Position numbers and translations under genes: made by a program
Notes under the pieces: model-generated
Database searches by the model: none
Told to the model about the DNA's origin: nothing
What the model saw: only the letters and a program-made list of their open reading frames with translations
Source: a phage
Length of the DNA: 64,000 nt
Strand: one strand, 5' to 3'
NCBI GenBank assembly: GCA_021683455.1
Contig: GCA_021683455.1_3051.1
Shown: positions 3,291-37,753 of the stretch, piece after piece
How positions within the stretch are numbered: the first letter of the stretch is position 1
How the letters are laid out: every line of letters begins with the position of its first letter

Positions 3291-3685
3291 ACCCTATTAC
3301 TGGAAGCCAGTTGCAGTTTTATCTGCTCAATATCATCAGGGTTATCGATGACTGAAAAGCGTATTTCTACTATCAGAGTATAATCATCATAAACGGGTAT
3401 CACATTAACTGCTAATTTATCAATACGTGGCTCATAGTTTCTTACTGCGCTTTCAATGTTACGCTCAACCGTGTCAGCAGTAAGAGGAGTCATATTCTCA
3501 AAAAGTTGGTCAGATAAATCACATCCAAATTCAGGGTCAAACGGTCTTGAACCTTTTCTTGTTGTAATAATTCCTAAAAGACTATTTTTAATTGACCTTA
3601 ATCCAAGTGATCTTGAAACGTCTTTGTTCCAATCCATTTTCATCTCTGGGTCAATATCAGAATAAAGCTTATTAATATTTGCCAT
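3287..3685 (-). CDS. 25: Baseplate wedge subunit gp25
   Basis: 132-aa [22 protein letters not shown]..; T4 gp25 length and sequence. Confidence 0.9.
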   Translation of the reverse strand: MANINKLYSDIDPEMKMDWNKDVSRSLGLRSIKNSLLGIITTRKGSRPFDPEFGCDLSDQLFENMTPLTADTVERNIESAVRNYEPRIDKLAVNVIPVYDDYTLIVEIRFSVIDNPDDIEQIKLQLASSNRV

Positions 3686-4311
3686 TACAATAGCTCAAAG
3701 AATTCTTTGAGTCCTCTTATTACATGAGCGTGAGTTTTTCCACACTCTGGACATTTAATTGGAACAGCCAAATAAACAGTAGGCTTTAAAAGCATATCTT
3801 TTATAGCTACAATATCTGACTCTGTGATGATAGAATATAAATCTTCCAATTCTTTTTCATTTAAGTCTTCAACTGGAATGCTTTCCCCGTTAGCGTGAAT
3901 CGTTTCTATACATGATACTATCATGTGGGCTATATTTTTATCATCAAAAATTTTAGGGTAATGGAATTTAATTTTAATGTCACCCAGTGTATACCAGAGG
4001 TCTTCTGGTGCATCTATTTGTGTATGTAATAGATTTATATGGGTTGGTATTTCAGTTCCACAGGTGCACTTCCAGGAGTTTTCGTGATTAACTTCACCAA
4101 GAGAATGTGCCCATAAATGAATCAATAATAGTTCTGATTCTTGGCGGTTTAAATCTTTTGCATTTGTACAGTCTTTGATTAGCTTTTTAACAATTGCTTC
4201 TACAGAACCATTATTTTTGGCAGTAATAAGTTCTAGATATTCTTTAAGCGTGAATGCGCGACAATTGATTATTTTAGAACCAACTCTCACATCAAATTTG
4301 TATTCATACAT
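3685..4311 (-). CDS. 26: Baseplate hub subunit gp26
   Basis: 208-aa ORF; T4 gp26 length and position. Confidence 0.85.
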
Positions 4312-4332
4312 ATTTAGCTCCTTTATTTATCA

Positions 4333-4340
4333 TATTTATA
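4333..4340 (-). promoter_or_regulatory. Late promoter TATAAATA for 26-25
   Basis: Minus-strand TATAAATA 22 nt upstream of gp26 ATG. Confidence 0.55.
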
Positions 4341-4344
4341 AATA
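4337..4344 (+). promoter_or_regulatory. Late promoter TATAAATA for 51-27-28-29
   Basis: Plus-strand TATAAATA overlapping the minus-strand copy; SD AAGGAG 4351-4356; ATG 4362. Confidence 0.55.
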
Positions 4345-4361
4345 GAATAAAAGGAGCATCT

Positions 4362-5114
4362 ATGGCAAACATTATTCGTTGTAAATTACCAGATGGTGTT
4401 CATCGTTTTAAACCATTTACGGTAGAAGATTATCGAGATTTTTTGTTAGTTCGAAACGATATAGAACATCGGTCACCACAAGAACAAAAAGAAGTAATTG
4501 CTGATTTAATTGCTGATTATTTTGGAGACTATCCAAAGACTTGGCAACCATTTATATTTTTGCAGGTATTTGTAGGTTCAATAGGTAAAACTAAAGTACC
4601 AGTCACATTTGTATGTCCAAAATGTAAAAAAGAAAAGACAATTCCATTTGAAATATATCAAAAAGAATTAAAGGAACCTATTTTTGATGTAGCTAATGTT
4701 AAAATTAAATTAAATTTTCCTTCTGAGTTTTATGAAAATAAAGCAAAGATGATTACTGAAAATATTCATTCTGTTCAAGTAGATGAAATGTGGTATGATT
4801 GGAAGGAAATTAGTGAATCAAGTCAAATAGAACTTGTTGACGCCATCGAGATAGAAACATTAGAAAAAATTCTCGATGCAATGAATCCTATTAATTTAAC
4901 ATTGCACATGTCGTGTTGTGATAAGTACATTAAAAAATACACTGATATAGTAGATGTGTTTAAGCTATTAGTTAATCCAGATGAGATATTTACTTTTTAT
5001 CAAATTAATCACACGCTTGTAAAAAGTAATTATAGCTTAAATTCAATAATGAAAATGATTCCTGCCGAGCGCGGATTCGTATTAAAACTGATTGAGAAGG
5101 ATAAACATCAATGA
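4362..5114 (+). CDS. 51: Baseplate hub assembly protein gp51
   Basis: 250-aa ORF; T4 gp51 length and position. Confidence 0.85.
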
Positions 5115-6283
5115 GTATGTTACAACGTCCTGGATATCCAAATCTCAGCGTTAAATTATTTGAGAGTTATGACGCTTGGAGTAATAATAGATTTGTTGAA
5201 TTAGCTGCTACTATTACCACATTAACTATGCGTGACTCTCTTTATGGTCGAAATGAAGGAATGCTGCAGTTTTATGATTCTAAAAACATCCATACAAAAA
5301 TGGATGGAAATGAAATAATTCAGATTTCTGTAGCTAATGCAAACGATATTAATAATGTTAAAACACGAATTTATGGATGCAAGCATTTTTCCGTGTCAGT
5401 AGATTCAAAAGGCGATAACATCATTGCTATTGAATTGGGAACTATTCATTCTATAGAAAATCTTAAATTTGGTAGACCATTTTTCCCTGATGCCGGTGAA
5501 TCTATAAAGGAAATGCTTGGCGTAATTTATCAAGATCGTACATTATTAACTCCAGCGATAAATGCTATTAATGCTTATGTTCCTGATATTCCATGGACTA
5601 GCACATTTGAAAACTATTTGTCATATGTAAGAGAAGTTGCTCTAGCGGTAGGAAGCGATAAGTTCGTATTTGTATGGCAAGACATCATGGGAGTTAACAT
5701 GATGGACTATGATATGATGATAAATCAAGAACCATATCCAATGATTGTAGGTGAGCCAACTTTAATAGGTCAATTCGTCCAAGAATTGAAATATCCATTA
5801 GCATATGATTTTGTTTGGTTGACTAAATCAAACCCGCATAAACGCGATCCAATGAAAAATGCTACTATCTATGCTCATTCATTTTTAGATTCTTCATTAC
5901 CAATGATTACTACAGGAAAGGGTGAAAACTCTATTGTAGTGTCAAGGTCAGGTGCTTATTCTGAAATGACTTATAGAAATGGATATGAAGAAGCTATTCG
6001 TCTTCAGACTATGGCGCAGTATGATGGTTACGCTAAATGTTCTACTGTCGGTAATTTTAACTTGACTCCCGGCGTTAAAATTATTTTTAATGATAGTAAA
6101 AACCAATTTAAAACAGAATTTTACGTTGATGAAGTTATTCACGAATTATCAAATAATAATTCCGTAACTCATCTTTATATGTTCACTAATGCAACGAAAC
6201 TGGAAACAATCGACCCAGTTAAGGTTAAAAATGAATTTAAAACTGATACTACCACTGAAGAAAGTAGTTCTTCCGATAAGTAA
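5111..6283 (+). CDS. 27: Baseplate hub subunit gp27
   Basis: 390-aa ORF; ATGA overlap with gene 51; T4 gp27. Confidence 0.9.
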
Positions 6284-6764
6284 TAAAGAAGTTTCTATTC
6301 CTAAAATGGGTCTTAAACATTATAACATTTTAAAAGATGTTAAAGGTCCTGATGAAAATTTAAAACTTCTTATTGATTCTATTTGTCCGAATTTATCACC
6401 GGCAGAAGTTGATTTCGTTTCCATTCATTTGCTAGAATTTAATGGAAAGATTAAATCTCGTAAAGAAATAGATGGTTATACTTATGATATTAATGACGTT
6501 TATGTATGCCAAAGATTGGAATTTCAATACCAAGGAAATACATTTTATTTTAGACCTCCTGGAAAATTTGAACAATTTTTAACTGTAAGCGATATGTTAT
6601 CCAAATGCTTGCTTAAGGTCAATGATGAAGTTAAAGAAATTAATTTTCTTGAGATGCCAGCATTTGTTTTAAAATGGGCAAATGATATTTCTACAACTTT
6701 AGCAATTCCTGGCCCTAATGGTCCAATAACCGGAATTGGCAATATTATTGGATTATTTGAATGA
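6231..6764 (+). CDS. 28: Baseplate hub distal subunit gp28
   Basis: Track ORF 6189-6764; internal ATG at 6231 gives 177 aa (T4 gp28 length) and a short overlap with gp27. Confidence 0.8.
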
Positions 6765-8533
6765 AAAAGCCACAAGAAATGCAAACGATGCGTAGAAAAG
6801 TTATTTCAGATAATAAACCAACACAGGACGCGGCTAAATCCGCTTCTAATACTTTATCTGGTCTTAATGACATTTCTACAAAATTAGATGATGCTCAAGC
6901 TGCTTCTGAATTAATAGCTCAGACTGTTGAAGAAAAATCAAATGAAATAGTTGGAGCAATTGATAACGTTGAAAGCGCAGTAAGTGATACTACTGCCGGT
7001 TCTGAGTTAATTGCTGAAACTGTTGAAATTGGAAACAATATTAATAAAGAAATCGGTGAATCGCTCGGAAGCAAATTAGATAAATTAACAAGTTTACTGG
7101 AACAAAAAATTCAGACAGCTGGAATTCAGCAAACTGGAACGAGTTTAGCAGTAGTCGAAAATGCTATTCCTGTTAAAGTCGTCGAGGATGATACAGCTGA
7201 ATCTGTGGGTCCTTTATTACCGGCTCCTGAAGCAGTTAATAATGATCCTGATGCTGATTTTTTCCCTACCCCTCAGCCAATTGAACCAAAACAAGAGTCT
7301 CCAGAAGAGAAGCAAAAAAGAGACGCATTTAACTTAAAAATATCTAATGCATTAGATAAATTAACAAAGACAGTTGATTTCGGATTTAAGAAATCTATTT
7401 CAATTACTGATAAAATATCTAGTATGCTATTTAAGTATACCGTCAGTGCTGCTATTGAAGCTGCTAAAATGGTTGCATTGATAATGGCTGTTGTTATTGG
7501 AATAGACCTGCTGATGGTTCATTTTAAATACTGGTCAGATAAATTTTCAAAAGCCTGGGATTTATTTGGTACTGATTTTACTAAATTCTCTAGCGAAACC
7601 GGAACATGGGGTCCTTTATTACAAAGCATCTTTGATTCTATTGATAAAATTAAACAACTTTGGGAAGCTGGAGATTGGGGCGGATTAACAGCAGCTATTG
7701 TTGAAGGGCTTGGAAGTGTTCTTTATAATTTAGGAGAGCTTATTCAATTAGGTATGGCTAAATTATCTGCAGCAATTCTTCGAGTTATTCCTGGCATGAA
7801 GGATACTGCTGATGAAGTAGAAGGAAGAGCATTAGAAAATTTTCAAAATTCTACTGGAGCATCTCTTAATAAAGAAGACCAAGAAAAAGTAGCAAATTAT
7901 CAAGATAAACGAATGAATGATGATCTTGGCCCAATAGCAAAAGGATTAGACAAAATTGCGAATTGGAAAACTCGTGCATCTAACTGGATTCGTGGTGTAG
8001 ATAATAAAGAAGCATTGACTACTGACGAAGAACGTGCAGCAGAAGAAGAAAAATTAAAACAACTTTCACCGGAAGAAAGAAAAAATGCTTTAATGAAAGC
8101 TAATGAAGCTCGTGCTGCGATGATTCGTTTTGAAAAATACGCTGATTCAGCTGATATGAGCAAAGACTCAACGGTTAAATCAGTTGAATCTGCCTATGAA
8201 GACCTTAAAAAACGGATGGATGACCCGGATTTAAATAATTCACCGGCGGTTAAAAAAGAACTTGCTGCTAGATTTTCTAAAATTGATGCTACTTATCAAG
8301 AGCTCAAGAAAAATCAGCCTAATGCCAAACCTGAAACTTCTGCTAAATCGCCAGAAGCGAAACAGGTCCAGGTGATTGAAAAGAACAAAGCACAACAAGC
8401 TCCTGTTCAACAAGCATCTCCTTCAATCAATAATACTAATAATGTTATTAAGAAAAATACTGTCGTTCATAATATGACACCTGTCACAAGCACAACTGCT
8501 CCTGGTGTATTTGGTGCGACGGGAGTTAATTAA
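6761..8533 (+). CDS. 29: Baseplate hub / tail length determinator gp29
   Basis: 590-aa ORF; T4 gp29 length; ATGA overlap with gene 28. Confidence 0.9.
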   Translation: MKKPQEMQTMRRKVISDNKPTQDAAKSASNTLSGLNDISTKLDDAQAASELIAQTVEEKSNEIVGAIDNVESAVSDTTAGSELIAETVEIGNNINKEIGESLGSKLDKLTSLLEQKIQTAGIQQTGTSLAVVENAIPVKVVEDDTAESVGPLLPAPEAVNNDPDADFFPTPQPIEPKQESPEEKQKRDAFNLKISNALDKLTKTVDFGFKKSISITDKISSMLFKYTVSAAIEAAKMVALIMAVVIGIDLLMVHFKYWSDKFSKAWDLFGTDFTKFSSETGTWGPLLQSIFDSIDKIKQLWEAGDWGGLTAAIVEGLGSVLYNLGELIQLGMAKLSAAILRVIPGMKDTADEVEGRALENFQNSTGASLNKEDQEKVANYQDKRMNDDLGPIAKGLDKIANWKTRASNWIRGVDNKEALTTDEERAAEEEKLKQLSPEERKNALMKANEARAAMIRFEKYADSADMSKDSTVKSVESAYEDLKKRMDDPDLNNSPAVKKELAARFSKIDATYQELKKNQPNAKPETSAKSPEAKQVQVIEKNKAQQAPVQQASPSINNTNNVIKKNTVVHNMTPVTSTTAPGVFGATGVN

Positions 8534-13041: not shown

Positions 13042-15135
13042 TTATCCTTGAACGAACTTGTAAGGCATGTTTGCAATATCTATGCAAGACGCAATAATTC
13101 CAAGAGATGATTCTACTTTTTGTTTAACATTTGATGAAACAAATGATGCAAAGTCAACTCTGTCTTCTATTTCAATATCACCTGTCATTGCAACTACTTC
13201 ACCAGTTTCCATTAGACGGTCTCCGTCATAGATTATCGATTCGGTGAGCTCTTCCGTGGTCATAACTTCAGCTTGAATGAGTTTTGTATTATTAGATGTT
13301 GTTCCGTCATTATTAGAAGCATCAGTTATTTTATTAACTTTGACCATCAATCCACGCGGTAGAATAACTTCAGCTTCTGTTGCTATTCCGAGACTTCCTG
13401 GATATACAACATTAACTTTATGAGCTCCATCAATTGCCCATCCTATTTGAACTTTAACGTATTCAGGATTTTCTTTATACGCTCTTATTTCGTTTGGATT
13501 AATAGTTATTCCTTCTTCATTTTTATCAACTGTTAATTCATTGCGAGCTTCTGGTTCTAAAAGACCAATACCAGCATGTGTGATTCCAAAACGTCCAAAA
13601 ATGATAGGAGTTAAAGAAGTAGATACAAAATTTCTGAAGTAGAACACTTTATTTTTAACTAACGCTTCATATATAGGAGCAGTCATACTTTGAGCACGAT
13701 AAACTGTAATGCCTTCTGGTATACGGTCACCATTTTCAAAAGCTGAATCTAAGTTATTTATAGCAGATTCAATTTCTTTTTCATTCATTACATCATATCG
13801 TTCTGGATTGTAACGACCTAAAAGAAGATTATTGATGTCAGTATATCCTGAACCGCAATATTCTCTAATGCCACGCTTTTGTGATGGAGTATATTTAGAA
13901 CCATCGCGTGCAATAGTAATATCAATCATTGGACCAGCACCAATTCCAGAAAAACTGTAAATCATTCGTTTGAGGAATTTAGTTTTTGCTGCGTTCCAGG
14001 AATTTTTAGTTATTTCTTCCCAGACTTCATCTGATTGTCCTTTACGATTTTTATTATGATTAGCAAGCCATTTATCTTTATAATCTTCAAAGAATTGATT
14101 TACAGCTGCTGCGTATTTCTCTAAACATTTTATTGAAGTAGTTGGTTCATTTTTAATTGCATTAAAAATTACTTCTTTAATTTTTTCTGAAACTTCACCG
14201 ACTTGACTCATTGGAAAGAATTTATAATCATAGTGAAGTTCATCTGCCGTTCCTTCAGCAATAATTTTTGCTGCCTTTGTTTTAGAAGCTAATGAATTAA
14301 TTCCAATTTTCATTTCTTCTGCTTCGGGAATTAAAGGTGCAGTAGCTGGTTTATTAAAATTGGCTGCTGTAGATTCATACTTCTGGAATAATTCACTTTC
14401 AAATCTAGAAGATTCCAATGACTGACTTTGTGCAATTGCTCTACGGGAAATTTTAACTTTAACGATTACAGCTTGGTCAGAACGTTTATCATTTTCTTGT
14501 GCAATAGATGCTGCAATTGCCTCATTTTTAGTTACTTGAGCTCCAGTATCTTTATTGATATAAACATCACCGACCTTCGATTCAACTTTAGTAAAGAGCT
14601 CTGTACTAATTTCCGGAACTCCTGGAATGTCTTCTAGTGATACATTTTTGCGATGTATAAGAATATATGCATACTTTTTATCGTAATCCCAGAGTTCCTT
14701 AAGAAGGACGTATCTGCCACCTGAACGACTACGGATAAGTCTATCAGCAATAAGTTGAATTTGTCGAGCTTGACCGGCGGTTTTAGACTTAAGAATACGA
14801 AGCATGCAGGCATCAATTTTATATTGACGCATTGTTTGCATTGCAACAGTAAAAACTGAATTGATATAATTAATCGGGCTTGGACCAAGACCTTTTAATT
14901 TAGCAATTGAACCTTTAGCAGTTAATGTAAAAGGAACAATATGCATCATTTTATCGCCCATCTTTAAATCGCGATTAGTATCACCTCCAGATGTATATGT
15001 ACATAAACGAAAGCCTGGCTGTTCAATTGCATCATCAACATGAACTGAAAAAATTTGCGGTATTTTCTTCTTTGGATTTAAGTTTGTAATCGGAAGAGTA
15101 GTATCTTCGTCAAATAATTCTGTAATAAGTTCCAT
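13042..15135 (-). CDS. alt: Alt ADP-ribosyltransferase (697 aa from second ATG)
   Basis: MELITELFDEDTTLPITNL..; ART motifs YRAQ, FVSTSL, EAEVILPRG; adjacent to ligase gene as in T4. Confidence 0.8.
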   Translation of the reverse strand: MELITELFDEDTTLPITNLNPKKKIPQIFSVHVDDAIEQPGFRLCTYTSGGDTNRDLKMGDKMMHIVPFTLTAKGSIAKLKGLGPSPINYINSVFTVAMQTMRQYKIDACMLRILKSKTAGQARQIQLIADRLIRSRSGGRYVLLKELWDYDKKYAYILIHRKNVSLEDIPGVPEISTELFTKVESKVGDVYINKDTGAQVTKNEAIAASIAQENDKRSDQAVIVKVKISRRAIAQSQSLESSRFESELFQKYESTAANFNKPATAPLIPEAEEMKIGINSLASKTKAAKIIAEGTADELHYDYKFFPMSQVGEVSEKIKEVIFNAIKNEPTTSIKCLEKYAAAVNQFFEDYKDKWLANHNKNRKGQSDEVWEEITKNSWNAAKTKFLKRMIYSFSGIGAGPMIDITIARDGSKYTPSQKRGIREYCGSGYTDINNLLLGRYNPERYDVMNEKEIESAINNLDSAFENGDRIPEGITVYRAQSMTAPIYEALVKNKVFYFRNFVSTSLTPIIFGRFGITHAGIGLLEPEARNELTVDKNEEGITINPNEIRAYKENPEYVKVQIGWAIDGAHKVNVVYPGSLGIATEAEVILPRGLMVKVNKITDASNNDGTTSNNTKLIQAEVMTTEELTESIIYDGDRLMETGEVVAMTGDIEIEDRVDFASFVSSNVKQKVESSLGIIASCIDIANMPYKFVQG

Positions 15136-15158
15136 CATATCCTCTCTAGTGTTTATTC

Positions 15159-15166
15159 TATTTATA
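15159..15166 (-). promoter_or_regulatory. Late promoter TATAAATA upstream of alt
   Basis: Minus-strand TATAAATA about 21 nt upstream of alt start, followed by SD GAGAGGA. Confidence 0.5.
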
Positions 15167-15171
15167 AAATT

Positions 15172-15189
15172 AAAGGCCCGAAGGCCTTT
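15172..15189. terminator. Terminator hairpin AAAGGCC-CGAA-GGCCTTT
   Basis: GC stem with CGAA loop flanked by A/T runs. Confidence 0.55.
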
Positions 15190-15376
15190 AATAATCTATT
15201 GGTAAGAGAGTACGATATATTTCAAACTTTGGACCTTTTTCATAAGCATCAAAAGTTTCTGTGAATTTATTATAAGCATATGCATCTATAAATTCGAGAA
15301 TGACTTGTGATACAGAAGTAGAAACATCTCCACCTTCTTTTTGAGCAATGACAATTGTTTCTAAGTAAGCTTTCAT
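15188..15376 (-). CDS. Hypothetical protein (62 aa)
   Basis: ORF with ATGA overlap to ligase stop. Confidence 0.5.
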   Translation of the reverse strand: MKAYLETIVIAQKEGGDVSTSVSQVILEFIDAYAYNKFTETFDAYEKGPKFEIYRTLLPIDY

Positions 15377-16836
15377 AGACCAGTTACCTCATGAAAATCA
15401 CCAAATACATCCTCGAATGTATTAGCTTTAGTTTTATCTTCACGTAAACGAATTGCAATTGGAAGAAATAGCTTAACGTAATCAGTACGTCCATCTAATT
15501 TTACCCAGCCGTTGCATTCGCACTCTAGAATTTTTCCAATATAATAATTTTGGTTTTCCATAATGCGAGTACGGTCAAGTTCATGCGATTTTACGCCGGC
15601 TTTATCTTTTAAGCCTGAACCAGCATTTACTTTAATTTTTCCACACTCTGATTCAAGAATGAAACCACCTGCTTTAGTAGGGTCTTTACGGTGAGGATAA
15701 ATTCCTACAATTTTTAAATCAACATCAATTACTTCTTTAAATTTATAAAGATTTTTTGAACGAGCATTTTCCCATAATCCATCGATATTTTTGAGAATAA
15801 TACCTTCAAGACCTTGGTCAATATACTTTTTGTAAATTACCTTAGCTTCATCTAGGTTATTTACTATCTGGTTTTCAATTAAAATTACTTTATCATAGCC
15901 TGATGTCATTTGTTCTAGTTTAGAAAAACGTACATCATATTTTAAACGAAACGCCGGAAGACCGTATATTTCTACCAACGGAACATAATCCCAGACCTGA
16001 AACTTCATGCATTGAGCTTCTTTTTCTGAAATAGTTCCCTTTAAAGATTTATTAGCGATTCCATTAGAAGTAGTACGTGATTCAGCTACTTCGGCGAATT
16101 CTTTAGCTTTACTAATTTCAGGATAAGCATCAAAAAGAAAATCTAGGCCTTCTGGCTCCTTTTCAACTTGCTCATGGTATACCAATTCGCCATCAATTAA
16201 CACACCTTCTGGATGAATCTGGCGAGCTTCTGCAGTCATTTTGATTAACTCTTCCTTGAGAAGATCTAATCCTAGATATTCATTACCAGCTCGTGATAAA
16301 AGACGAACATCATCTAATTCATCACCTCTGACTTCAGCAAAGCACCGAGCTCCATCAGCTTTTAATTGGGCAAAGGCTGGAAATTTGATATTCTTATTAA
16401 TGCCTTTTTCATCATAAGAACTTGCCAGCATTTGAGGTTGTTCAGGAATTAAACCTGGCCAAACTTTGTTTGCAATAGATACTGATGCACCGCATTCAAG
16501 GTCTCGCATCATCACCCGACGCAAAACTTCAACATCATCTTTTTTACCGTCAGTAATATATCCAGTTAATTCCTCAATTGCCGCATTTCCAGTCAATTTC
16601 CGAGTAGCTAATGTGAATTCAATGAAGTCAAGCATATCGGTAAGAGTCAACATTCCAAAACTCTGGGTAGCAATACCAGGTTTAGGCCATTTCTTGATAT
16701 AATACTGTAACCCACGAGAATAAGTCAGACGATATACTCGTTTGAGCAATTCATTATCTTTATTCTTTTCAAGAATTGCTTGCTTTTGCTTAGTTGAACC
16801 AATAGATGCTATTTCATTCAGAATTTTAAGAATCAT
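15373..16836 (-). CDS. 30: ATP-dependent DNA ligase gp30
   Basis: 487-aa ORF MILKILNEIASIGSTKQKQAILEKNKDNELLKRVY..; T4 DNA ligase. Confidence 0.95.
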   Translation of the reverse strand: MILKILNEIASIGSTKQKQAILEKNKDNELLKRVYRLTYSRGLQYYIKKWPKPGIATQSFGMLTLTDMLDFIEFTLATRKLTGNAAIEELTGYITDGKKDDVEVLRRVMMRDLECGASVSIANKVWPGLIPEQPQMLASSYDEKGINKNIKFPAFAQLKADGARCFAEVRGDELDDVRLLSRAGNEYLGLDLLKEELIKMTAEARQIHPEGVLIDGELVYHEQVEKEPEGLDFLFDAYPEISKAKEFAEVAESRTTSNGIANKSLKGTISEKEAQCMKFQVWDYVPLVEIYGLPAFRLKYDVRFSKLEQMTSGYDKVILIENQIVNNLDEAKVIYKKYIDQGLEGIILKNIDGLWENARSKNLYKFKEVIDVDLKIVGIYPHRKDPTKAGGFILESECGKIKVNAGSGLKDKAGVKSHELDRTRIMENQNYYIGKILECECNGWVKLDGRTDYVKLFLPIAIRLREDKTKANTFEDVFGDFHEVTGL

Positions 16837-17102
16837 TGTTCATCCTTTAGAGTTTGGTTTACAGCTCTATTATAAATCAATTCATCATTAAGCTCAGTCA
16901 AAGACCTGTGGTACGTGGTTCTAACTTTATTTCCTTGCATCCAGTGCTTGACGTAAATGAAACCTTGCTCTACACATTTTTTAAAAATTCGTTCGTCTTT
17001 TTGAGCTCGGAATTCTGGATTGCATCTAAAAAATTGATTTACGTGACCGTAATCACGTGTAGTATTACCTTCATTTTCATAAATAGTATGAACAACAAAC
17101 AT
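16833..17102 (-). CDS. Hypothetical protein (89 aa; 30.1 position)
   Basis: ORF overlapping ligase start by 4 nt. Confidence 0.6.
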   Translation of the reverse strand: MFVVHTIYENEGNTTRDYGHVNQFFRCNPEFRAQKDERIFKKCVEQGFIYVKHWMQGNKVRTTYHRSLTELNDELIYNRAVNQTLKDEQ

Positions 17103-17944
17103 TAGAATGCTCCTTGTAAAATATTATCACCACTAGTAGGTCTATTATACAAATACTCTATGCCACCAGGTTTAATATAGTTCCATGTATGAAATGGATG
17201 CACATGATATGGATGTGTATAATATGGATGGTATGGATTTAATCCAGGAGTTCTCCAGGTAGTATTCCAACGAAAAGAATCGTTTTTAATCATCTTTTCA
17301 ATTACATCTTTTATAGCTTTTTCACTATCAAAACTTTCTTTATTTTCATTCGATGGAAAAAGCTTATTCTCTACATCATTCCATGTATAAACTCGCTGTG
17401 CAGTTTTTGGAATACTGTCACGCTCCCCTCGAGCCATCCAATAAACAGGAACATTTAATATTTCACTCGCGTGATCGCAGTGGTGAGCGAGATCGTCAAT
17501 ATAACAAATTACGTTATATTTCTCTTTTGCCTTTTTGAACAACTCTTCTTTTGAAGAATCATGACCACACATCAATACTTCTGAGAAGGCACCAGGAAAA
17601 AGAGCATTCAAATTAAATTGACGATTCAGCAGAGCGTCAATAGAATCACCCAATGCTGTAACAGCTACAAAATTATAATCTTCTTTTAATTTGTTAATTA
17701 CACACAGGGCATCTTTATATGGAGACAAGTAACGAATAAAATCTGAACGATTGTATTTTTCAATTAACTTGACGCCAAGTTCTTCATCGCAATTAAAGAG
17801 CTTACCAGGAGAAATAAATTTTTCGTCCTGAATCATTTTTAAAATATGTTCTAATGGAAGATTATATTTTTGGGCAAAATAAGGAAGACCTGATTGCCAG
17901 CTTAAACATACACCATCAATATCAGTCAAAATAGTAGGCTTCAT
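17102..17944 (-). CDS. HAD-superfamily-like hydrolase (280 aa; 30.2 position) with His/Tyr/Pro-rich tail
   Basis: N-terminal motif ILTDIDGV, later YIDDLAHH; C-terminal HPYHPYYTHPYHVHPFH. Confidence 0.6.
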   Translation of the reverse strand: MKPTILTDIDGVCLSWQSGLPYFAQKYNLPLEHILKMIQDEKFISPGKLFNCDEELGVKLIEKYNRSDFIRYLSPYKDALCVINKLKEDYNFVAVTALGDSIDALLNRQFNLNALFPGAFSEVLMCGHDSSKEELFKKAKEKYNVICYIDDLAHHCDHASEILNVPVYWMARGERDSIPKTAQRVYTWNDVENKLFPSNENKESFDSEKAIKDVIEKMIKNDSFRWNTTWRTPGLNPYHPYYTHPYHVHPFHTWNYIKPGGIEYLYNRPTSGDNILQGAF

Positions 17945-18405
17945 AGAGAGTCTCTTAATAGGTTTAACACATCAATAAATTCAGCTTCGGTTAGTATTGT
18001 ATCATCTTTTGTTAGACCGCTGGCCATGCTGTGCTTCAAAACTTTTCCTTTCGAGGCTTGTAATGCATCACGAAACCCTTTATTTTGGATCGCGGCTTCA
18101 AAATATGCATTTGTGTATAATTCTTTCCACGCTGGAGAGTATCTTGAAAACGGAACTCCGAGCCAGAAGAGGGTCCCACGGTCCTGAGCTCTAGCATAAG
18201 ACCTTCCAGCTTGTTGGGCGGCAAGCCCGGATAACCCAAATACACGACGTTGCTGTTCAACATTTTTCACCTTACATCCTTGGAGAAATCCTTCAAGACC
18301 TCCGAATTGAATACCATCCATGACAAAAGGCCATTGGGCGAAATTACTTAATGCACATGATGGCCATTTAAAATTGCTTCTAATCTCTAACTCAGACATT
18401 TTCAA
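17941..18405 (-). CDS. NADAR-like domain protein (154 aa; 30.3 position)
   Basis: LSNFAQWPFVMDGIQFGGLEGFLQGCK resembles the YbiA/NADAR core FSNFAAWP..DG....EHYFQAQK. Confidence 0.55.
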   Translation of the reverse strand: MKMSELEIRSNFKWPSCALSNFAQWPFVMDGIQFGGLEGFLQGCKVKNVEQQRRVFGLSGLAAQQAGRSYARAQDRGTLFWLGVPFSRYSPAWKELYTNAYFEAAIQNKGFRDALQASKGKVLKHSMASGLTKDDTILTEAEFIDVLNLLRDSL

Positions 18406-18598
18406 TACTTATAATTTCAACATCAGCCCAATGACCATAGCAAGGAAGACGAAACTCAACTGGCCAGTCACTACCCTTTTCTAGTATAATAGACTTGACT
18501 TGTGGTTCTTCATGCTCGTCAGTATATGGATTTTTATCTGTTACTTTATATGTGACCTTAATGTACTGAATTCCAAAAATCTTATTAATTATATTCAT
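18392..18598 (-). CDS. Hypothetical protein (68 aa)
   Basis: Collinear minus-strand ORF in 30.x block. Confidence 0.5.
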   Translation of the reverse strand: MNIINKIFGIQYIKVTYKVTDKNPYTDEHEEPQVKSIILEKGSDWPVEFRLPCYGHWADVEIISIENV

Positions 18599-18792
18599 AC
18601 TAATTCCTTTAATCCGTAAATAGGAGATAATTCATCACCCATACGAAGGTCTTCATTTCCATCTACCCAGGAAACAATATAAGCCTCTTTTATTTGAATA
18701 CCACTCCATTTAAATGGAGGTAGAACCTTAGAAATTAATCCAGGTATACCAACTCCCTTTAATTCAACAGTTTGACCTAAAAAGAATTTCAT
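18595..18792 (-). CDS. Hypothetical protein (65 aa)
   Basis: Collinear ORF, start/stop overlap with neighbours. Confidence 0.5.
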   Translation of the reverse strand: MKFFLGQTVELKGVGIPGLISKVLPPFKWSGIQIKEAYIVSWVDGNEDLRMGDELSPIYGLKELV

Positions 18793-19130
18793 TAGAACCT
18801 CATCTGAAAACCATGTGATTTAACATTACCGCCGCCAATATCAGAAATGTTAATTTCACGCGCAATTGAAGGGTCAATGTCAATTTCACCATTAAGTTTA
18901 GCGATAGCTAAAGTATCACGCCCATTTACTGTACGGAATTCTAAAGGACAAACCACATCAACATAATTTTTAATCGATTCACTAGTAGGTTGCAAATGAG
19001 CAGGAAGGTCTTTAGGCGCCTTAGAGAAAACCACTTCACAAAAATTTTTGCGGGTGTCAAAATAAGTAGTCATAAACATAATATTTTCCTCAGTAAGGGG
19101 CTGAAGCCCCTCATTTATTTTAAATATCAA
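18792..19130 (-). CDS. Hypothetical protein (112 aa)
   Basis: Collinear ORF in 30.x block. Confidence 0.55.
   Translation of the reverse strand: MIFKINEGLQPLTEENIMFMTTYFDTRKNFCEVVFSKAPKDLPAHLQPTSESIKNYVDVVCPLEFRTVNGRDTLAIAKLNGEIDIDPSIAREINISDIGGGNVKSHGFQMRF
19097..19110. terminator. Stem-loop GGGGC-UGAA-GCCCC (inside the 3-prime end of the 19120-19485 ORF)
   Basis: 5-bp GC stem with tetraloop. Confidence 0.35.
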
Positions 19131-19485
19131 ATTCGTTAAGAACTACATCAAAGATTGCTTCAAGATGCTCAGGTTTAGCTCTATTACTCAGAATATGACG
19201 AATCCAAGTTTTAACCAGAAGCTTACGATTAACGCCATTCCAGCAAGGATGAGTCCCTAAATCACGTTGACGAAAATCATCATCTAAAGCGATTTTAAAA
19301 TTTGAACCTTCCATTGTGATTGAAACCGTGATGCCATTTTCAAATCGCATATAAACGTAGTTAGGAGTCATATACTGTTCAATTTCGCATACTGAACCAT
19401 TTTGATGTTTCCAAAGGCAAATAGTATCAATAGAACCTGCAATACCATTAGAAACATATTTACGTTCAAAGTTGATGTAGTTCAT
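19120..19485 (-). CDS. Hypothetical protein (121 aa)
   Basis: ORF downstream of early promoter 19523-19551. Confidence 0.55.
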   Translation of the reverse strand: MNYINFERKYVSNGIAGSIDTICLWKHQNGSVCEIEQYMTPNYVYMRFENGITVSITMEGSNFKIALDDDFRQRDLGTHPCWNGVNRKLLVKTWIRHILSNRAKPEHLEAIFDVVLNEFDI

Positions 19486-19522
19486 TTTTATTCTCCGAGA
19501 TGTTTAATTGCGGTACAGGTAT

Positions 19523-19551
19523 ATAATATCATATCCTGTACCAAAGTAAAC
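19523..19551 (-). promoter_or_regulatory. Early promoter (GTTTAC-N17-TATTAT)
   Basis: Same module as the other early promoters. Confidence 0.55.
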
Positions 19552-19553
19552 AA

Positions 19554-19886
19554 TTATTTTACTACTTTCCAGTACTTCATGTCAAGTTTACCAACTTTTT
19601 TCATCTTCTCAATTAAGCGTTCGGCACGTTGGCGAGCTGTAACATAATACCATTCACCTAATTCATTTTGTTCAATTTTTCCAACGATTACTGTATTCAA
19701 TTCATAAATCCAACCAGTAAAGAAATTATGAACTTGAATTGTAAAGGTGAAATCTGTTCCCATACCTTCTGTTGTTTCTACTTCAATAATATCACCTTCA
19801 ACTGCCATTAAGAACCACATAGTTTCATCATATTTACCATTGAAGCATTTAGTTTTAACTGCAGCGTTCAGATTAATCGTTTTCAT
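19554..19886 (-). CDS. Hypothetical protein (110 aa)
   Basis: Collinear ORF. Confidence 0.55.
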   Translation of the reverse strand: MKTINLNAAVKTKCFNGKYDETMWFLMAVEGDIIEVETTEGMGTDFTFTIQVHNFFTGWIYELNTVIVGKIEQNELGEWYYVTARQRAERLIEKMKKVGKLDMKYWKVVK

Positions 19887-19904
19887 TTTATTCTCCTTTG
19901 TTTG

Positions 19905-19944
19905 TGTAAGATAATACTATCACAAAGGAACCATTACTGTAAAC
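19905..19944 (-). promoter_or_regulatory. Early promoter-like element (GTTTAC .. TAGTAT)
   Basis: GTTTAC and -10-like hexamer upstream of the 19886 start; spacer slightly longer than the others. Confidence 0.4.
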
Positions 19945-19974
19945 AACTTTATGCAATCTTTGGAAAATAAAAAA

Positions 19975-19992
19975 GGACTCCCGAAGGAGTCC
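19975..19992. terminator. Terminator hairpin GGACTCC-CGAA-GGAGTCC
   Basis: 7-bp stem, CGAA loop, flanked by A-run and T-run. Confidence 0.55.
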
Positions 19993-19997
19993 TCAAC

Positions 19998-20174
19998 TTA
20001 TGCTTTCTGCTTACCAAAACGAGAAGCATCATCTCGAAGAACCGCACGTGCTCGGCGCATGATCTTCTCAACAGTTTGATTGATACGAGAGTTCGACCCA
20101 CGCTTGTAGCCAGCGCGTTTAGAATCACCAACTTTCTTTTCAACTGCTTTCTTTGCTTTAGCTTGTTTTGCCAT
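19998..20174 (-). CDS. Small basic protein (58 aa; 30.9 position)
   Basis: Track ORF extends to 20216, but the internal ATG at 20174 (MAKQAKAKK..) has an SD-like AAGAG upstream. Confidence 0.5.
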   Translation of the reverse strand: MAKQAKAKKAVEKKVGDSKRAGYKRGSNSRINQTVEKIMRRARAVLRDDASRFGKQKA

Positions 20175-20419
20175 TATAAATTCTCTTTTAAATGAAAATG
20201 CAGGACTTATTGGCATTGCCTGCGCAAGCCCTCAAGGGGAACATAGGTTTTTGGATATTTAACGACCAGGATAACCATAAACCCGTCATCATTCACATTC
20301 AAGAGGTACACCGTAAAACTGCCGGGGTCTTAAAACTATAATGATTCGCAAATCATTAATCAGACAGTTCGACGGCTCCTCGATTTTAGCTCACACTAAG
20401 GCAGTGAATCTCCAATAAA

Positions 20420-20668
20420 TTACTTCAATGTTACCACAAAGTGACGAACTGCTTTTCGTGCAGCAGAAGCCAGAGGCTTGGCATATTTAAGTTCATCTTT
20501 TTCCTGAAGCTCAGCAGCTAATGCAGTTTGAGCAGGATTCAGATGTTTGAAATAACGCAGGATTTCAAGAGCTTCGGCTTCAACATCAATAGATGCGCCA
20601 TAGTTTTCGTGACCATTATTCCATGCGTTTCGTTGCAGTTCAAGAGCGTGTTGTAATTGTTTAATCAT
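20420..20668 (-). CDS. rIII: rIII lysis-inhibition accessory protein
   Basis: 82-aa ORF MIKQLQHALELQRNAWNNGHENYG..; T4 rIII. Confidence 0.85.
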   Translation of the reverse strand: MIKQLQHALELQRNAWNNGHENYGASIDVEAEALEILRYFKHLNPAQTALAAELQEKDELKYAKPLASAARKAVRHFVVTLK

Positions 20669-20816
20669 TTAAAAAATTCTCGTTAGAGATTAAAACTCGG
20701 TAGTCACGTTCTTCTGAATTTCATCTTCTTTCGACAGATCTCTCAGTTGTAGACTACCACGTAGAATTGTTCGGGTAACTTATTATTCCGACACCCAATT
20801 CATATTATTATTTATA

Positions 20817-21152
20817 TCACTTATAAAGACATGGAATAGCTTTATAGTGGCAAGTGACGAATTTTTGTTTAATTTCTTTTGGCTGCTTAAGACCCAGAGC
20901 TACAAAAGGATGCGGAACATTTCGAATTTGACCAACTGGAAGAGAAGTCAAATCACCAACTTCGCAGAAACCTTCAGGAACATCAGGACCGACAGAGTGA
21001 ACTACACACAGTTCAGGAACTTCACCTTGAACACGTTTACCGATAATAAGTCCTGATTCTGTAACTTCTTCATCACCGGCTTGTGCAGGTTCAGAAACTA
21101 AAATAACATATTCACCGACAGCACGAATTGGCAGCTGTTGTACTTCAGACAT
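20817..21152 (-). CDS. 31: Co-chaperonin gp31 (GroES analogue)
   Basis: 111-aa [33 protein letters not shown]..; T4 gp31. Confidence 0.9.
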
Positions 21153-36764: not shown

Positions 36765-37418
36765 TTAATACTTACAAGATTTCACAGTTTCAATAAAAAC
36801 TTTTTTAGCTTCCTGTGAATCGATATTTAAAATTTTTCTATAAGCCTTTAACTTTATAGAATAATTATTCCAGACTAAATTATCAGTCTGTTCATCATGT
36901 TTATCAATTATATTTAAAAACGAATCAAGCAAGATAAACGTCTCAAACGAAATTATGTTCGACTGAAGCAGTTTAAAAATATAACTTGATTGAACTTTTG
37001 GATTATACTCAAAAATTTCTTTAAAAGCAGAAACTTCAACTTTTTTACTAAAATAATAAATGTTGCGAATATCTTCTTCAAACTTAAATTTAATTTGCTT
37101 TAAGCGTCCGATATATTCACGATAAAACACAAGTGCATCAGCATCAGAGATGTCGCCAATCCAAGCATCTTGGTTAGCTACAAGATTGCTAATAAAAATT
37201 AAAGTCAATTCTTTTAATTTATACTTTTCTGATAGCTTTTGGAAAAAATACTTATCTCTTCGTTTTTGATAAGCGGCATCAGACACCCGCATGCACCAAT
37301 TGTACTTAATAACATCATATTTTCCATTCATATGTTGTTTTATCATTAAGTATAATTTATAAACTGATTTACCATCAATATATCTTTCACCACCAGCAGG
37401 CATGCGGAGTTTAATCAT
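36765..37418 (-). CDS. 59: Helicase loader gp59
   Basis: 217-aa ORF; T4 gp59 length and position. Confidence 0.85.
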   Translation of the reverse strand: MIKLRMPAGGERYIDGKSVYKLYLMIKQHMNGKYDVIKYNWCMRVSDAAYQKRRDKYFFQKLSEKYKLKELTLIFISNLVANQDAWIGDISDADALVFYREYIGRLKQIKFKFEEDIRNIYYFSKKVEVSAFKEIFEYNPKVQSSYIFKLLQSNIISFETFILLDSFLNIIDKHDEQTDNLVWNNYSIKLKAYRKILNIDSQEAKKVFIETVKSCKY

Positions 37419-37753
37419 AGCAGAAAGTCTAACGTATTCGTTTTTTCACATCTAACAACAGAAGGGCGTAAAAGATTTTCGTCAATAGCTTCTGATTGAA
37501 TTTTTTCAATTATACCCGAAGGAATAAATTTAGCAAATTGAGTTTCAGGAATAGAGTTTTCTTCCAAGAATGCTGTCGTAGCTTCAAGATAACTCATTCC
37601 AAACTCTTCTACCATTTTTTCAATAATAAATCCATTTTCTTGACGATCAAGAAGCTTTGCTATTTCATCCTTTTCTTTCTTGATTGAAAGTTCTTTTTCT
37701 GAAAGACCGGTCTCATCGACCGGACGAATATCATTTAGAGAAAACTGTGTCAT
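37415..37753 (-). CDS. 33: Late transcription co-activator gp33
   Basis: MTQFSLNDIRPVDETGLSEKELS.. from ATG 37753 gives 112 aa (track ORF starts 3 codons earlier). Confidence 0.85.
   Translation of the reverse strand: MTQFSLNDIRPVDETGLSEKELSIKKEKDEIAKLLDRQENGFIIEKMVEEFGMSYLEATTAFLEENSIPETQFAKFIPSGIIEKIQSEAIDENLLRPSVVRCEKTNTLDFLL

Follow-up and report, generated by a model that had tools for sequence, protein, structure and literature searches.

A T4-type AdfN gene and an adjacent gene for a predicted HAD-superfamily phosphatase in a Tequatrovirus genome

The protein encoded by gene 30.3 of phage T4 was named AdfN (anti-DarT factor NADAR) by Johannesman et al. (Nat Commun 2025; PMC11825919), and its discovery relied on RB69 x T2/T4 recombinants selected on DarTG1 (PMC11825919). 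This NADAR-fold enzyme strips the ADP-ribose placed by DarT1 from DNA in vitro and shields T-even phages from DarTG1; it is weakened by the substitutions E36A and K43A, or by the loss of its C-terminal helix (PMC11825919). In an independent study, a phage NADAR protein hydrolysed guanine-ADP-ribose and not thymine-ADP-ribose (PMC11125620). The site in the last strand is occupied by a His in phage NADARs of the gp30.3 type, by a Glu in those of the YbiA type and by an Asp in NADARs linked to DarT1; YbiA itself is a housekeeping enzyme, an N-glycosidase that acts on riboflavin intermediates, and its gene belongs to a LexA-controlled operon (PMC11125620). T4-like NADARs were also previously noted as early genes alongside ADP-ribosyltransferases (PMC9503650). 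Here, we analysed a stretch of 64,000 nucleotides of phage DNA (contig GCA_021683455.1_3051.1 of assembly GCA_021683455.1; hereafter the window, to which all positions refer), focusing on gene 30.3 and its neighbour, gene 30.2.

The window comes from a T4-like phage, a Tequatrovirus, and over positions 16800-18650 its DNA is 97% identical to that of hundreds of Tequatroviruses, among them Shigella phage Sf23, RB51 and RB14. Two adjacent open reading frames (ORFs) had been singled out in an original prediction made by a model from the letters of the DNA, and both were found on the minus strand at the positions announced. The first is gene 30.3, or adfN (17941-18399, minus strand; 152 aa from its ATG; Pfam family PF08010), assigned to a NADAR-fold DNA ADP-ribosylglycohydrolase. 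The second is gene 30.2 (17102-17944, minus strand; 280 aa), whose product is assigned to the HAD-superfamily phosphatases and shows 94% identity to T4 gp30.2. The stop codon of 30.3 overlaps the start codon of 30.2 in an ATGA at positions 17941-17944. We consider it highly probable that 30.3 encodes the DNA de-ADP-ribosylase AdfN, that 30.2 encodes a HAD phosphomonoesterase, and that the two are independent of each other, their adjacency being the inherited T4 gene order. The order on the minus strand is indeed that of T4 (30.4, 30.3, 30.2, 30.1, 30, alt.1, alt), with consecutive overlaps of 1-8 bases from gene 30.4 to gene 30, followed by alt.1 with a 1-bp overlap and by alt after a gap of about 50 bp.

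Gene 30.3 lies at its T4-syntenic position, between 30.4 and 30.2, and 149 of the 152 residues of its product are identical to those of T4 gp30.3 (98%; NP_049816). The mechanically called ORF of 154 aa (17941-18405) opens at a TTG (18405), while the ATG annotated in T4 is found two codons downstream (18399) and yields 152 aa; it is from this ATG that both the T4 annotation and the experimental papers number the residues, and we do the same here. The core SNFAQWPFVMDGIQFGGLEGFLQGCK (18271-18348, minus strand; coordinates verified), which the original prediction had described as NADAR/YbiA-like, is present in the 154-aa ORF and contains the catalytic residues E36 (18292-18294, minus strand) and K43 (18271-18273, minus strand). 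Both are invariant in an alignment of nine family members and line up with the E..Q..K of YbiA. Likewise invariant in these nine members is H123 (H125 in TTG numbering; 18031-18033, minus strand), the histidine of phage-type NADARs, which sits in the last beta-strand (strand 122-125 of the model). When the gp30.3 family alignment was compared with the E. coli YbiA sequence using hhalign, the quoted core was aligned (probability 84%, E 7e-6).

The AlphaFold2 model of gp30.3 has a mean predicted local distance difference test score (pLDDT) of 82.6 and contains the C-terminal helix (140-153), which is absent from RB69. A Foldseek search of this model against the PDB retrieved YbiA (2b3w, probability 1.00), PnNADAR (8bau, 0.99) and a Geobacter NADAR (8bat, 0.98); beyond these three solved NADAR structures, all matches had a probability of at most 0.04. 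A match to the Pfam NADAR profile had been proposed as a check. It was not obtained: the 154-aa protein directly matches PF08010 (Phage_30_3, E 5e-70) and does not match the NADAR model PF08719, which is touched weakly by three of the nine family members (best E 0.003). Reading the missing PF08719 match as a refutation would have been wrong, because Pfam keeps the phage proteins as a separate family. The gp30.3 of the window is therefore a NADAR-fold protein and an orthologue of T4 AdfN. A further ORF of 75 aa lies out of frame within adfN (18036-18263, minus strand). It corresponds to gene 30.3' of the T4 annotation, where it is described as internal translation in a different reading frame.

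From the 98% identity, the intact C-terminal helix and the conservation of the catalytic residues named above, we infer that the gp30.3 of the window would remove ADP-ribose from DNA. The host DarT1 toxin would ADP-ribosylate guanines in single-stranded phage DNA; AdfN, as a stand-alone NADAR enzyme, would then hydrolyse the N-glycosidic bond joining the base to ADP-ribose, and with unmodified DNA restored, replication could proceed in cells carrying DarTG1. In the published data of a T4 transposon sequencing (Tn-seq) screen under DarTG1, insertions in 30.3 were lost (log2 fold change -7.25, q = 0). The substrate could instead be mainly soluble, namely ADP-ribose derivatives or riboflavin-pathway intermediates as for YbiA, which is the top structural match; such a role had been proposed for phage NADARs in general. 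We regard this as very improbable, given that T4 AdfN strips ADP-ribose from DNA in vitro, that it is required for growth on DarTG1 hosts, and that phage NADARs carry a His where the YbiA-type enzymes have a Glu. The suggestion that the 154-aa protein has an anti-defence role and reverses DarT modification agrees with its 98% identity to T4 AdfN, for which removal of ADP-ribose from DNA is published (PMC11825919, PMC11125620). Both the NADAR assignment and the anti-DarT function were therefore right, yet already known. The prediction, made from sequence only, had recovered a function that a recombination screen and biochemistry established in 2024-2025. As adfN is intact in this phage, resistance to DarTG1 is predicted.

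Gene 30.2 encodes a protein with all the HAD signature residues. Motif I is formed by D8-I-D10, with the nucleophile Asp and the acid/base Asp (17915-17923; coordinates verified), motif II by T96 (17657-17659), motif III by K132 (17549-17551) and motif IV by the Mg2+-binding pair D150-D151 (17492-17497), all on the minus strand and with verified coordinates. In an alignment of 47 sequences, five of these residues (D8, D10, K132, D150 and D151) never vary and T96 is retained by at least 90% of the homologues; together they make up a complete set of HAD phosphatase motifs. Moreover, across 143 distant gp30.2 relatives (142 of the best representatives from a profile search, plus the window protein), conservation reaches at least 90% at D8, D10, K132 and D151. 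The second Asp of HAD motif I marks phosphotransferases, not dehalogenases. In the AlphaFold2 model, residues 1-200 are confident (10-residue block means of about 80-97). The model shows a Rossmann-like HAD core with a helical C1 cap (residues ~1-195), and helices are inserted between motifs I and II. The cap is of the four-helix C1 type, and a further helix is found at 207-220. The DIDGV (D8, D10) and YIDDL (D150, D151) motifs reported earlier for this 280-aa neighbour are thus present, within a conserved motif set and a modelled HAD fold. We propose that gp30.2 would act as a Mg2+-dependent HAD phosphomonoesterase.

The family of this enzyme is less sharply drawn than its superfamily. No family was significant when gp30.2 was compared with Pfam, NCBIfam and PADLOC, direct sequence searches against the PDB, NCBIfam and PADLOC gave nothing significant for either gp30.2 or gp30.3, and PHROGs assigns gp30.2 to phrog_420 (unknown function). 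The best PDB sequence match of gp30.2 is mouse cdN (2jao), a 5'(3')-deoxyribonucleotidase, with DGVxxx(W/F)xSGL aligned. The corresponding Pfam family, NT5C (PF06941), is matched weakly by 8 of the 47 close homologues (best E 1e-4). An exhaustive profile search recovered 1,360 clusters with an E of at most 1e-3. Among the 143 distant relatives, 34 match PF06941 (best E 4e-10), some of them above the gathering cut-off of 24.8 bits. These matches suggest that gp30.2 is a sister or divergent branch of NT5C, not a clear member. Because this closest family comprises 5'(3')-deoxyribonucleotidases, we infer that a small phosphoester is the most likely substrate, for instance a (deoxy)nucleoside monophosphate.

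Genes encoding gp30.2 were found in 1,452 phage records, and those listed are from T4-like phages of many hosts. Over residues 1-200, the ratio of nonsynonymous to synonymous polymorphism (pN/pS) lies at 0.00-0.07, against 0.07-0.43 in the tail. The catalytic domain is under very strong purifying selection, yet no phenotype of 30.2 emerges from the published T4 transposon screens consulted. Taken together, gp30.2 appears as an ordinary-looking, uncharacterised member of a familiar enzyme superfamily. In two metagenomic proteins (P0171, 591 aa; P0226, 660 aa), a gp30.2-like HAD domain is located C-terminal to a long N-terminal region; Pfam scans of the gp30.2-like fusion proteins P0171, P0226, P0124 and P0164 detected no partner domain.

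We then considered the genomic neighbourhood of 30.2, using 78 IMG/VR loci that hold a 30.2 homologue. A ligase gene is located downstream (within ~1.5 kb) in 71 of them, and just upstream in three more. This linkage would fit an end-healing 3'-phosphatase, similar to the phosphatase of T4 polynucleotide kinase (PNK), which would prepare nicks for the neighbouring ligase. The weak match of gp30.2 to phrog_415 ('polynucleotide kinase', E 0.0045) points the same way, as does the presence of distant gp30.2 homologues amid replication and recombination genes (UvsX, gp59, PD-(D/E)XK nuclease). However, the sequence profiles favour NT5C, and T4 already encodes PseT. Moreover, every locus is T4-like; since the linkage between 30.2 and the ligase gene is confined to T4-like genomes among the records listed, it may be inherited synteny and not functional coupling. 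For the most distant homologues (loci L067 and L072), the gene context was made up only of generic T4-like genes (UvsX, gp59, PhoH, PD-(D/E)XK, patatin). On balance, an end-healing role of gp30.2 seems unlikely, and we retain an NT5C-like phosphomonoesterase.

The second question raised by this neighbourhood is whether 30.2 and 30.3 form a single anti-DarT module, in which gp30.2 would be the T-even factor that AdfN requires to be fully active. Gene 30.2 is the obvious helper candidate, because it overlaps adfN (stop of 30.3 with start of 30.2) and because the AdfN paper postulates a T-even helper (PMC11825919). RB69, in which ectopic T4 AdfN works, also has 30.2. The published Tn-seq data nevertheless speak against such a module: under DarTG1, insertions in 30.2 were neutral (log2 fold change -0.12, q = 1, p 0.61, 71 sites), whereas those in 30.3 were lost. 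Gene 30.2 is also non-essential in the T4 transposon reference library (72 of 72 sites hit), and insertions in it were neutral in M9 versus LB (-0.10). The distribution of the two genes is equally separable. Of the 78 loci, 39 have a 30.3 gene in their flanks, and the other 39 retain 30.2 with no 30.3 on either side. Conversely, about 10 of the 30 loci with a 30.3 homologue have no 30.2 within 5 kb, and in two of them (L104 and L105) 30.3 abuts the ligase gene. We consequently rejected gp30.2 as an AdfN cofactor, on the basis of the T4 Tn-seq under DarTG1 and of the separable distribution of both genes, and leave the module almost no probability. Any functional pairing implied by the original prediction is not supported by these data: the 30.2/30.3 pairing appears positional, not functional. 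The published Tn-seq thereby removes gp30.2 as the obvious candidate for the T-even helper of AdfN.

Several side observations concern the surroundings of adfN. In the same Tn-seq data under DarTG1, insertions in 30.4 were depleted 3.5-fold (log2 fold change -1.79, q = 0.014), which the paper does not discuss. The stop codon of 30.4 overlaps the start codon of adfN, and RB69 likewise has 30.4. This depletion might reflect polarity or translational coupling that affects adfN, or else point to the T-even helper of AdfN. In L104 and L105, which are viral contigs of ~150-165 kb, the NADAR gene (4977-5471) overlaps the ligase gene (5446-6954), and neither 30.2 nor 30.1 intervenes. The NADAR match of L110 falls within an ORF of 336 aa (3430-4437), a possible fusion or extension. 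Finally, in two T4-like contigs (L099/L037 and L103/L024), the gp30.3 homologue is found tens of kilobases away from the 30.2-ligase locus; the NADAR gene has therefore moved or was separately acquired in some lineages.

The catalytic domain of gp30.2 is followed by a tail of ~80 residues. It is made up of one predicted helix and of a disordered region rich in aromatic residues and proline, which contains a slippage-prone pentapeptide repeat. The pLDDT of the model is below 50 at residues 225-235 and 239-280, and disorder is predicted over the last ~55 residues. At the DNA level, Tandem Repeats Finder detected an imperfect tandem repeat of 15 bp (17189-17230; period 15, 2.8 copies), in which ATGGATG occurs at 17194, 17209 and 17224, with an exact spacing of 15 bp. 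Read on the minus strand, this repeat encodes x-x-H-P-(Y/F) pentapeptides (HPYYTHPYHVHPFH), each unit contributing His-Pro-Tyr/Phe. The earlier description of a His/Tyr/Pro-rich tail encoded by ATGGATG repeats was correct for the stretch and for the repeats; the sequence quoted for it was not, as it reads NPYHPYYTHPYHVHPFHTW, the first H being actually an N. The pN/pS values of the tail indicate that it is translated and constrained, several-fold more weakly than the catalytic domain. Many lineages lack this tail and have proteins of ~200-212 aa.

'Low-complexity module' is a fair description of this tail, and 'metal-binding module', its proposed alternative, is not supported. The latter idea is prompted by five His in 20 residues (PYHPYYTHPYHVHPFHTWNY), which equals the count in the whole 200-residue catalytic domain. 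T4 has NPYNPYHPYQTHPFQTW at this place, with two His, N or Q at three positions and two codons fewer, and other Tequatroviruses differ again: among six Tequatrovirus sequences, the repeat site displays indels as well as H to N or Q changes and is indel-prone among close relatives. In addition, many lineages are tailless, the segment is predicted to be disordered, and the histidines derive from a repeated CAT-CCA-T unit. As the histidines are not conserved even inside Tequatrovirus (five here, two in T4), a metal site was rejected, and we give it hardly any credence. The histidine content of the repeat is probably incidental and unlikely to be metal-binding.

Within this otherwise hypervariable tail, one motif is conserved: GGIEYLYNRPT (17135-17167, minus strand), with the consensus GxGIEY[LW]xx[QR]PT. 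Besides Tequatrovirus, at least three further lineages possess it, with gp30.2 proteins of 45-66% identity. In T4, gp43, gp55 and gp33 have hydrophobic-acidic C-termini that bind the clamp (PMC2988020), and the gp30.2 element resembles them in being both hydrophobic and acidic. We scanned the window ORFs of 60 aa or more for the pattern [LIVM][DE][FYW][LMI][FYWL] within 15 residues of the C-terminus, and only gp30.2 (IEYLY) and an ORF of 112 aa ending in TLDFLL (37415-37753, minus strand) possess it. From its length and its C-terminus, we take this ORF to be gp33. As in gp55, a linker whose length and sequence vary precedes the gp30.2 motif. By analogy, the tail might be a tether through which an NT5C-like phosphatase would be docked on the gp45 sliding clamp, at forks or nicks. 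If true, a nucleotide or DNA-end phosphatase would join the T4 clamp 'toolbelt', beside the ligase encoded two genes downstream. We estimate that about 0.4 such patterns would be expected by chance near the C-termini of the window ORFs. The degenerate pattern is thus not rare enough to be more than a lead, and we hold the tether to be improbable.

Some points weigh against the account favoured here, namely an AdfN enzyme and an independent HAD phosphomonoesterase. AdfN alone fails to rescue E. coli from DarT1, and non-T-even phages are rescued partially (PMC11825919, PMC11125620); a further T-even factor was therefore postulated (PMC11825919), and the in vivo mechanism is incomplete. For gp30.2, the window protein itself has no significant Pfam match, PF06941 included. 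A literature search retrieved no study or enzymology of gp30.2, so that weak similarity at the family level is the basis for its substrate class. The conserved GxGIEYL motif, moreover, implies a tail function that this account leaves unexplained.

The other genes of the region follow the T4 annotation. Gene 30.4 (18392-18598, minus strand; 68 aa) was assigned from the T4 order and annotation. Gene 30.1 (16833-17102, minus strand) encodes a DUF3045 protein (PF11243, E 3e-64) and gene 30 (15373-16836, minus strand) the ATP-dependent DNA ligase (PF01068), both in agreement with the T4 annotation. The pair 30.3/30.2 had been placed immediately upstream of the DNA ligase gene; it is upstream, but not immediately so, as gene 30.1 intervenes between 30.2 and the ligase gene. 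The gene alt (13042-15138, minus strand) encodes an ADP-ribosyltransferase (PF03496, E 6e-38). Alt has 698 aa here, versus 2,049 bp (682 codons) for T4 alt. As alt is located four genes downstream of the NADAR gene, an ADP-ribosyl 'writer' and an 'eraser' are found within about 3 kb. A consensus scan of positions 15000-21000 for promoter- and terminator-like sites gave counts not above those of shuffled sequence.

Finally, we compared both proteins with known systems. The gp30.3 of the window has the same length as T4 AdfN when counted from the ATG, occupies the same place between 30.4 and 30.2, and possesses E36, K43, H123 and the C-terminal helix. It differs from T4 AdfN by three conservative substitutions (K11R, V53I and M125I), from which no functional change is expected. 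With the NADAR antitoxin of the DarG1 type (Geobacter lovleyi, 8bat), it shares the fold (Foldseek 0.98) and, as published for T4 AdfN, the reaction, i.e. the removal of ADP-ribose from guanine in DNA. Unlike the DarT1-linked NADARs, the phage protein is devoid of an N-terminal extension and has a His instead of an Asp in the last strand. It is also an orphan, with no toxin partner, and phage AdfN fails to neutralise DarT1 in E. coli in the absence of infection. The founding protein of the NADAR/DUF1768 family, E. coli YbiA (2b3w), is the top structural match of gp30.3 (E 4e-4, TM-score, i.e. template modelling score, of 0.62), and its SNFAxWP..DG..E..Q..K core aligns with that of the phage protein; the two nevertheless share only about 19-23% identity, and the YbiA family has a Glu in the last strand.

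For gp30.2, the likeness to the NT5C family (PF06941; mouse cdN 2jao, human cdN 2i7d) lies in the HAD core with its helical C1 cap. The Foldseek TM-score normalised to the target is 0.60-0.67, the profiles being more specific than the fold, and gp30.2 differs from NT5C by its extra tail of ~80 residues. With the phosphatase domain of T4 PNK (1ltq), the alignment covers only the 128-residue HAD core. This domain has no cap and acts on the 3' ends of polynucleotides, whereas the gp30.2 model has a C1 cap.

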